From NCBI GenBank assembly GCA_027337125.1, contig GCA_027337125.1_3057.1: a stretch of 64,000 nucleotides of DNA. One strand, given 5' to 3'. Made by a program: the position numbers and the translations under genes. Positions within the stretch are counted from its first letter, which is position 1. Every line of letters starts with the position of its first letter. Source of the stretch: a phage. Below are positions 53,386-53,946 of this stretch, in pieces. Under the pieces are notes generated by a model. That model was not told the DNA's origin. It did not search any database and saw only the letters and a list, made by a program, of their open reading frames with translations.

Positions 53386-53946
53386 ATGATTAATAAAATT
53401 GTACATGAAATGGCTTTAAACGGAGATTCATATAAAATATCTGCCGTAGTTGAGAATTTCATACTTAATAAAGTAAAAGAATATTTCACTGATTGTTCAG
53501 TTAGTTATCAAGAAAAAATGGTTTTAACTGACGATACTGAAAAATCAAATAATTTGTTTTGTTCGAATTTTACCACTAAGAAGCGTACTAGAAGATTTGA
53601 TATTGTTATTGCTCGTAATGGTAAAAAGCATATAATTGAAATCAAACACCAAGTTGGTGGAGGTACAGCTATTGATTCGGTTGGAATATATCTGGAAGAT
53701 AAAGATAAATTAAAAGAATACACAAAAACTGAAAATCCTGTGTCATTGATGATATTAGATTTTTTGCCATGCGGATATTATCCGCGTAATAAGTGGACAA
53801 AAAGAGAATCATTTACTGATAATCCAACCATCCAAGCAAGGTTTAATGAATATGCTAAATCACAAAACGTGTTAGTATTACTATCAAATACATATGATGA
53901 AGAATTATATAATTCGTTTTTTGCTGCAATAAATGAGAGAATATAA
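53386..53946 (+). CDS. PD-(D/E)xK nuclease-like protein translationally coupled to dam
   Basis: Core motif [18 protein letters not shown] (D-x12-E-x-K); stop overlaps dam ATG (ATAATG). Confidence 0.55.

Follow-up and report, generated by a model that had tools for sequence, protein, structure and literature searches.

A nuclease-like gene joined to dam in T-even phages: a candidate type II restriction-modification cassette

In a T-even phage genome, dam is directly preceded by a gene for a small protein with a predicted restriction endonuclease core, and we consider, with moderate confidence, that the two genes together form a compact type II restriction-modification (R-M) cassette of virulent T4-like phages, probably specific for GATC. 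We know of no earlier candidate for a type II R-M cassette in the virulent T-even phages.

Results

The nuclease-like gene and its locus

The window, which is the whole stretch of 64,000 nucleotides that was analysed, is a Tequatrovirus (T-even) segment with the gene order primase gp61, a 66-aa reverse-strand ORF, the nuclease-like ORF, dam, gene 56 and soc. The nuclease-like ORF, the candidate R subunit, starts at an ATG and occupies 53386..53946 on the plus strand, exactly as described in an earlier note that had reported a 186-aa ORF ending on the dam start codon; its TAA stop and the dam ATG have one base in common (ATAATG). The dam gene (53946..54725, plus strand), the candidate M subunit, encodes a 259-aa D12-class N6-adenine DNA methyltransferase (Pfam PF02086, MethyltransfD12, E 1e-50).

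PHROG 8706, annotated as "unknown function", matches the nuclease-like ORF from end to end with an E-value of 6e-115. Full-length homologues were found at 63, 58, 56 and 49% identity, with two more at about 30%, and the dN/dS ratio of the ORF is 0.08–0.18 (Nei-Gojobori). Judged by sequence conservation, the ORF is a real gene under purifying selection. About 148 phage records hold it at 95% or higher DNA identity, and when 1.84 billion representatives were scanned exhaustively with an HMM, the family came to only 11 proteins, of which all those with a readable context lie in T4-like phage DNA. The gene is annotated as hypothetical in every database entry, no description of it was found in the searchable literature, and the T-even accessory-gene screens consulted are silent on it too.

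The 66-aa ORF on the opposite strand (53082-53282, minus; T4 L003 2273-2473, minus) belongs to PHROG 2024 and overlaps the primase stop codon. It is named "dam.1" in the RB3 and T6 records, is kept even in phages that have no dam, and is intact in T4, where it is unannotated in AF158101.6. Its hydrophobic composition suggests a small membrane protein.

Active site and predicted fold

A restriction-endonuclease-type core had been read from the letters alone, and comparison with homologues bears it out. By manual count the motif is F71-D72-I-V-I ... I84-E85-I-K87, i.e. D-x12-E-x-K, with the codons of D72 at 53599-601, E85 at 53638-40 and K87 at 53644-46; the invariant residues H88-Q89 and G93-T-A-I-D-S98 follow, so that the catalytic core and the invariant block behind it, as delimited by invariant columns and predicted structure, extend over 53599..53679 (plus strand). 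The three core residues and E23 (codon 53452..53454, plus strand) are invariant in eight homologues down to 29–33% identity. By analogy with E...(P)D...ExK enzymes, E23, which in the model lies on the long helix preceding the β-sheet, may have a catalytic role.

An AlphaFold2 model computed from a six-sequence alignment (pLDDT 80.7, pTM 0.79) comprises, in order, helix 15–33, strands 38–48, 66–77 and 80–88, helices 92–113 and strand 119–124. This is the core αβββαβ arrangement of the PD-(D/E)xK superfamily, and the superfamily's catalytic signature, D...(D/E)xK on adjacent strands, is found in the sequence and in the model alike, with D72 and E85/K87 on the neighboring strands of the single hairpin 66–77/80–88. 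Structure prediction, which the earlier note had named as a check on its proposal, therefore yields a fold of the PD-(D/E)xK type; as modeled, it resembles the orthodox type IIP restriction endonucleases and is MunI-like. A structure search against BFVD matched only an uncharacterised homologue from phage MX01 and generic endonucleases.

Relationship to known endonuclease families

The nuclease-like ORF matched no known restriction endonuclease family above a curated threshold. The Pfam DpnII profile (PF04556) scored 17.6 bits against a cut-off of 23, below the gathering threshold; this profile matched four of the eight family members (best E 8.3e-5), and a PADLOC REase_II match (E 5e-5) falls over the same segment. 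For a profile comparison, authentic DpnII-family sequences were fetched with a DpnII sequence as probe, which matched a database protein at 99%. Alignment of the family to the resulting 14-sequence DpnII alignment with hhalign gave a probability of 33% and an E-value of 4.5e-4, the aligned region being limited to 35 columns at the catalytic hairpin, in which the DpnII segment reads KRFDFVIK..YLIEVNFYSGSG and the D-x12-E spacing is identical to that in the nuclease-like protein. The catalytic core is the sole segment of the nuclease-like protein that aligns to DpnII, and the N-terminal ~150 residues of DpnII have no counterpart in it. At the level of profiles the similarity to DpnII is suggestive.

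The earlier note had described the module as MutH/DpnII-like. The DpnII half of this description stands as a sub-threshold similarity in four of eight members, whereas the MutH half does not, since neither the sequence searches nor the closest folds showed similarity to MutH or Sau3AI, and MutH is not among the fold matches. Membership of the EcoRI family (PF02963), prompted by the look-alike motifs ExKHQ and GxAI(D/E)(S/R), was rejected on an hhalign probability of 0.2% and the lack of a Pfam hit; the EcoRI sequence for this motif comparison was confirmed from the PDB. The Seg/Mob homing endonuclease class was also rejected, as there was no GIY-YIG or HNH hit in Pfam or PHROG and the predicted fold is PD-(D/E)xK. 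Run against the PDB sequences, the family profile found nothing but spurious hits to designed repeats (E 0.3), the NCBIfam search gave only chance matches to FolD, and a PADLOC match to DpdD (E 0.012) was set aside as weak.

Linkage and co-divergence with Dam

The nuclease-like gene was compared in ten lineages, namely the window, G28, T2, a Klebsiella phage and six metagenomic contigs, between which the identity of the nuclease-like protein ranges from 29 to 99%. In all ten, a T4-Dam-like D12 methylase with the N-terminus MLGAIxYTGNKQ lies directly 3' of the gene, and the stop and start codons overlap or are at most 13 nt apart; the two genes are thus adjacent and co-inherited throughout, as is typical of type II R-M systems. 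The pair follows the primase gene (gp61) in Tequatrovirus, L008 and L009, lies between denB and ndd in Klebsiella phage SmallBear_ER8, and is found upstream of rIIA in L007. Since the surrounding genes differ between lineages, the nuclease-like gene and dam appear to move as a unit. In L008 there is in addition a 93-aa ORF (4010-4291) between dam.1 and the nuclease gene, which matches only the C-terminal half of the NTP-pyrophosphohydrolase phrog_4856 and could be a partial gene that records a further rearrangement at this hotspot.

Pairwise identities of the nuclease-like protein and of Dam are correlated with r 0.96, and their means are 46% and 64%, respectively, so that the nuclease-like protein diverges faster. 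Restriction endonucleases typically diverge faster than their partner methylases. The window Dam is 98.5–100% identical to the Dam proteins of T2 and G28 (98.5% to that of T2), the GATC specificity of T2 and T4 Dam is established, and the T4 record AF158101 states of dam that it "produces N6-methyladenine in GATC sites". Among the sequence comparisons, the linkage to Dam is the strongest evidence for R-M pairing. Together with the co-divergence and the population pattern described below, it supports the idea, put forward on the letters alone, that the gene and dam make up a compact R-M module.

Presence and absence among T-even phages

The primase-side flank is carried by 504 Tequatrovirus records, of which 184 contain dam and 148 contain the part of the ORF that is missing from T4; primase, ORF and dam are contiguous in 146. 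From these counts we derive about 147 records with both nuclease and dam (including the window, G28 and T2), about 36 with dam only (T4, FN and G8 among them), about 320 with neither gene (such as RB3, RB51, PST and T6) and some 0–2, possibly partial records, with the nuclease only. In these 504 flank-sharing records, which are phylogenetically non-independent, the methylase gene is tolerated without the nuclease gene and the reverse is essentially absent, as an active R-M pair predicts.

The classical T-even phages represent three states of the cassette: T2 has a frameshifted nuclease gene plus dam, T4 has dam only and T6 has neither. The T2 copy (L004 1501-2046) has lost 1 nt in a T-run, which alters the C-terminus and gives a protein of 181 aa, with dam present. 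The SV76 copy is likewise frameshifted at the C-terminus and the ESCO58 copy is split in two.

The earlier note tentatively took T4 to lack a gene of this kind upstream of dam, and rightly so. A three-way alignment of the window, T4 and T2 places the segment missing in T4, which comprises the promoter and about the first 160 nuclease codons, at 53318..53866 (plus strand). The deletion is clean, measures ~0.55 kb and has its endpoints in a CAAA microhomology; what T4 retains upstream of dam is a remnant of ~21 codons, corresponding to codons ~159–179. The potential early promoter "P(E)17.40", annotated ahead of dam in an old T4 record (X01416 391-419; T4 L003 ~2490-2520), spans the deletion junction, its -35 element coming from the left flank and its -10 element from the nuclease-gene remnant, and for this reason the expression signals of T4 dam appear to be a by-product of the deletion. 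In 1988 Miner and Hattman reportedly described that T2, compared with T4, has an insertion of 536 bp on the 5' side of dam for which they had no explanation; this fits the indel of the nuclease gene.

A further indel polymorphism lies less than 1.5 kb from the cassette: segF is absent between gene 56 and soc in the window (54771-55304) and present in T4 (L003 3426-4605).

Putative promoter, hairpin and expression signals

A putative promoter of the T4 early type for the nuclease-dam operon lies at 53331..53360 (plus strand). It consists of a -35 element GTTTAC (53331-36) and an extended -10 element TGgTATTAT (53352-60) with a spacer of 17 nt when counted from TTTACT (the scan match being TTTACT-17-TATTAT with TG), and a Shine-Dalgarno sequence GAGGA (53374-78) lies 7 nt ahead of the ATG of the nuclease-like ORF. 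The gene's own early promoter, another point of the earlier note, does not stand out in a generic promoter scan of the region, which gave 12 sites against 12.4 expected, i.e. chance level. The arrangement GTTTAC-N17-TAnnAT recurs, however, upstream of the homologue in five divergent lineages (L002, L007, L008, L009 and L012), and it is on account of this recurrence that we accept the promoter despite the result of the scan.

The -10 hexamer is bracketed by an inverted repeat, UCUCAGC ... GCUGAGG (53338..53378, plus strand), whose 3' arm covers the Shine-Dalgarno sequence; its RNA fold has a predicted energy of -12.2 kcal/mol (z -2.0), and a repeat that brackets the -10 element is also present in T2. 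Hairpins in the same position were found in L002 (2943-3001, z -5.4), L007 (90-128, z -5.3) and L008 (4304-4335, z -3.3). Their sequences are unrelated between lineages, so that the structure is conserved and the sequence is not; in two lineages, the window and L002, the Shine-Dalgarno sequence lies within the 3' arm. Read-through transcripts of the primase operon would form the hairpin, and the nuclease-like ORF would be poorly translated from them, whereas transcripts begun at the embedded promoter would be without the 5' arm and could be translated. Analogous hairpins control the translation of T4 gene e and of the intron endonuclease genes.

Just downstream of the primase gene, inside the antisense 66-aa ORF, there is also a terminator-like hairpin of 11 pairs followed by a T-run (53245-53270, plus strand), which may end the transcript of the primase operon ahead of the nuclease-dam promoter.

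GATC depletion

GATC is by a wide margin the most depleted 4-bp palindrome in the window (1-64000), with 59 occurrences against ~204 expected (O/E 0.29), the O/E of the remaining 4-bp palindromes being 0.68–1.08. The cassette-free RB3 (L014, 20001-70000) is equally depleted (O/E 0.35), and GATC depletion was therefore dropped as evidence specific to the cassette; it is a lineage-wide feature in spite of the glucosylation of hmC. Candidate causes are MutH, host or phage GATC nucleases, and effects related to Dam. Avoidance of GATC by enterobacteriophages is said to have been ascribed to MutH by McClelland in 1985 and by Deschavanne and Radman in 1991.

Discussion

The proposed cassette and its action

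In the R-M cassette that we favor, the 186-aa protein would be a PD-(D/E)xK endonuclease of the MunI/EcoRI class, presumably a homodimer, and its cognate site would most likely be GATC, cut when the adenine is unmethylated. We infer the catalytic activity, the GATC specificity, the methylation sensitivity and the biological target of the protein; the specificity is taken from the partner methylase, GATC being proposed on the logic of an R-M pair together with the weak DpnII signal. Both genes would be transcribed early from a single promoter, the nuclease first, and the overlap of the dam start with the nuclease stop suggests that the methylase would be made alongside the nuclease. Phage DNA would be shielded by Dam methylation and probably by glucosyl-hmC too, and the enzyme would attack DNA in the infected cell that contains cytosine and has unmethylated GATC sites. 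Such DNA might be that of co-infecting or superinfecting phages, that of T-even relatives free of the cassette, host DNA short of methylation, or any other DNA that enters the cell; against the T-even relatives the cassette would act selfishly, as the neighboring seg and mob elements do. The cassette may thus be a selfish indel module of the T-even gene pool, with T4 dam as the orphan methylase left once the nuclease gene had been deleted.

Several points count against this proposal. We know of no report of such a nuclease activity in T2-infected cells, for which it should be borne in mind that the T2 copy is C-terminally frameshifted. Enterobacterial hosts are Dam+, and most of their DNA would be safe from a GATC enzyme that methylation blocks. 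Finally, glucosyl-hmC alone blocks 94% of the type II enzymes tested on T4 DNA (PMC7653180), which casts doubt on the need for Dam as self-protection. The more specific idea that the cassette is an active GATC R-M weapon in conflicts between phages or selfish elements in co-infected cells, where it would cleave the unmethylated GATC sites of rivals and add to GATC depletion, we regard as doubtful at present.

Alternative explanations

The clean presence/absence polymorphism between conserved genes resembles that of the T4 seg and mob genes, with segF itself only two genes away in T4, and the three different insertion contexts likewise recall mobile endonuclease genes. On these grounds the protein could be a homing-type or site-specific endonuclease that, when cells are co-infected, cuts cassette-free T-even genomes at rare sites or close to the empty gp61/gp56 site; recombinational repair would copy the cassette in, as for Seg and Mob, and Dam would be a passenger or an immunity factor. 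T4 homing endonuclease genes are under translational control by a hairpin, of which the promoter-in-hairpin arrangement is reminiscent. A homing endonuclease is, however, tied to its target locus, whereas here the Dam partner is constant and the locus varies, and the predicted fold is like that of orthodox type IIP restriction endonucleases and unlike the GIY-YIG and HNH folds of Seg and Mob. We therefore think this explanation unlikely; it also overlaps our main reading if the enzyme is a selfishly acting GATC R-M system.

Compatible with the Dam linkage would be a nuclease directed by modification, which would cut Dam-methylated GATC in the cytosine-containing host DNA, the phage Dam completing host methylation and so licensing degradation while glucosyl-hmC guards the phage DNA. 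The target would be abundant in Dam+ hosts, which are methylated at GATC, and early expression beside the functions that degrade host DNA would be explained. On the other hand, the protein is modeled as a single compact MunI-like domain in which no methyl-sensing winged-helix, SRA or Mrr-type module was found; phages with the nuclease only should be viable in Dam+ hosts, yet essentially none are seen; and T2 and T4 Dam methylate the phage DNA too. Such an enzyme appears rather improbable to us.

Obligate linkage and co-divergence would be expected also of a Dam subunit, and the protein might be a non-catalytic Dam partner with the scaffold of a nuclease, or one without a part in restriction, either as a specificity or processivity factor on hmC DNA or as a regulator of the operon. 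T2 Dam reportedly methylates more extensively than T4 Dam (Miner and Hattman in 1988). The invariance of E23, D72, E85 and K87 across 29–99% identity is unexpected for a scaffold in decay, T4 Dam by itself has full activity, and neither Pfam nor the model gave any helix-turn-helix or controller-protein features in the nuclease-like protein, so we rate this as quite improbable. That the gene is a decaying, functionless relic, kept only for dam expression signals in its 3' end, would agree with its harmless deletion in T4, the C-terminal frameshifts in T2 and SV76 and the split copy in ESCO58, but is very improbable in view of the low dN/dS, the intact full-length copies found in ~147 Tequatrovirus records as well as in lineages as distant as 29% identity, the invariant catalytic residues and the conserved promoter of its own.

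Significance of the proposed R-M pairing

The Dam proteins of T2 and T4 are textbook cases, their structures solved and their kinetics worked out in depth, and that of T4 is regarded as an orphan; to our knowledge, what either does for the phage has never been clear. The R-M reading suggests a simple origin for T2 and T4 dam, which would be the methylase partner in a two-gene cassette that ~30% of sequenced Tequatroviruses retain intact, and in this sense our comparisons suggest that T4 Dam is an orphan only secondarily. By its sequence the nuclease-like protein belongs to a new small family that resembles restriction endonucleases. If active, it would be a restriction enzyme of a strictly virulent, hmC-glucosylated phage. 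It would then also define a new and very small sequence family of restriction endonucleases, might be a compact cutter of GATC, and would bring the independent lineages of GATC-type enzymes built on the PD-(D/E)xK scaffold to four. Should it also prove to be a weapon between phages, the decades-old question of what T2 and T4 Dam are for would have an answer.

Comparison with known systems

The cassette is like the DpnII/MboI R-M systems (R.DpnII with the Dam-like M.DpnM) in that a D12 methylase for GATC has a PD-(D/E)xK endonuclease as its partner, and the catalytic hairpin of the nuclease-like protein is similar to that of DpnII, with the form (K/R)RFD-(I/F)-VI, 12 residues, IE-(I/V)-x, and a Gly-rich loop. 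It differs in its length of 186 aa as against ~288, in the third catalytic position, which is K87 here and N216 in DpnII, and in being carried by virulent phages instead of bacteria. In comparison with EcoRI, the positions that contact the bases in EcoRI are different in the nuclease-like protein, for which a different specificity is expected. With MutH and Sau3AI it has in common the PD-(D/E)xK superfamily and a functional tie to Dam sites.

A viral precedent is CviAI of the chlorovirus PBCV-1 (M.CviAI A581R, A579L), which combines an early, virus-encoded GATC m6A methylase with a GATC endonuclease (PMC7248222). The endonuclease R.CviAI is of the PD-(D/E)xK type and has no relationship to MboI or Sau3AI, and GATC specificity arose independently in the MboI, Sau3AI and CviAI subfamilies on this scaffold (PMC2441816). 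The CviAI case shows that cassettes of this kind do occur in viruses and that specificity for GATC has evolved more than once. PBCV-1 is, however, a giant virus of eukaryotes with an unmethylated host genome as the obvious target, whereas the phages considered here infect Dam+ hosts and have DNA that is hypermodified to begin with.

The T4 "orphan" Dam is the same gene at the same locus as the window dam; the pair is intact in the window, whereas in T4 the partner and its promoter are deleted apart from the remaining codons. Like the seg and mob cassettes, the nuclease-dam pair is an optional insert between conserved genes, is polymorphic among close relatives and has its own promoter in a hairpin; unlike them, it has the PD-(D/E)xK fold of a restriction endonuclease, is always found with a methylase and occupies several loci. 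With no membership of the DpnII, EcoRI or MutH families demonstrable, the cassette, as judged partly from the predicted structure, would resemble the GATC R-M systems of the DpnII/CviAI type in its working and MunI in its build.
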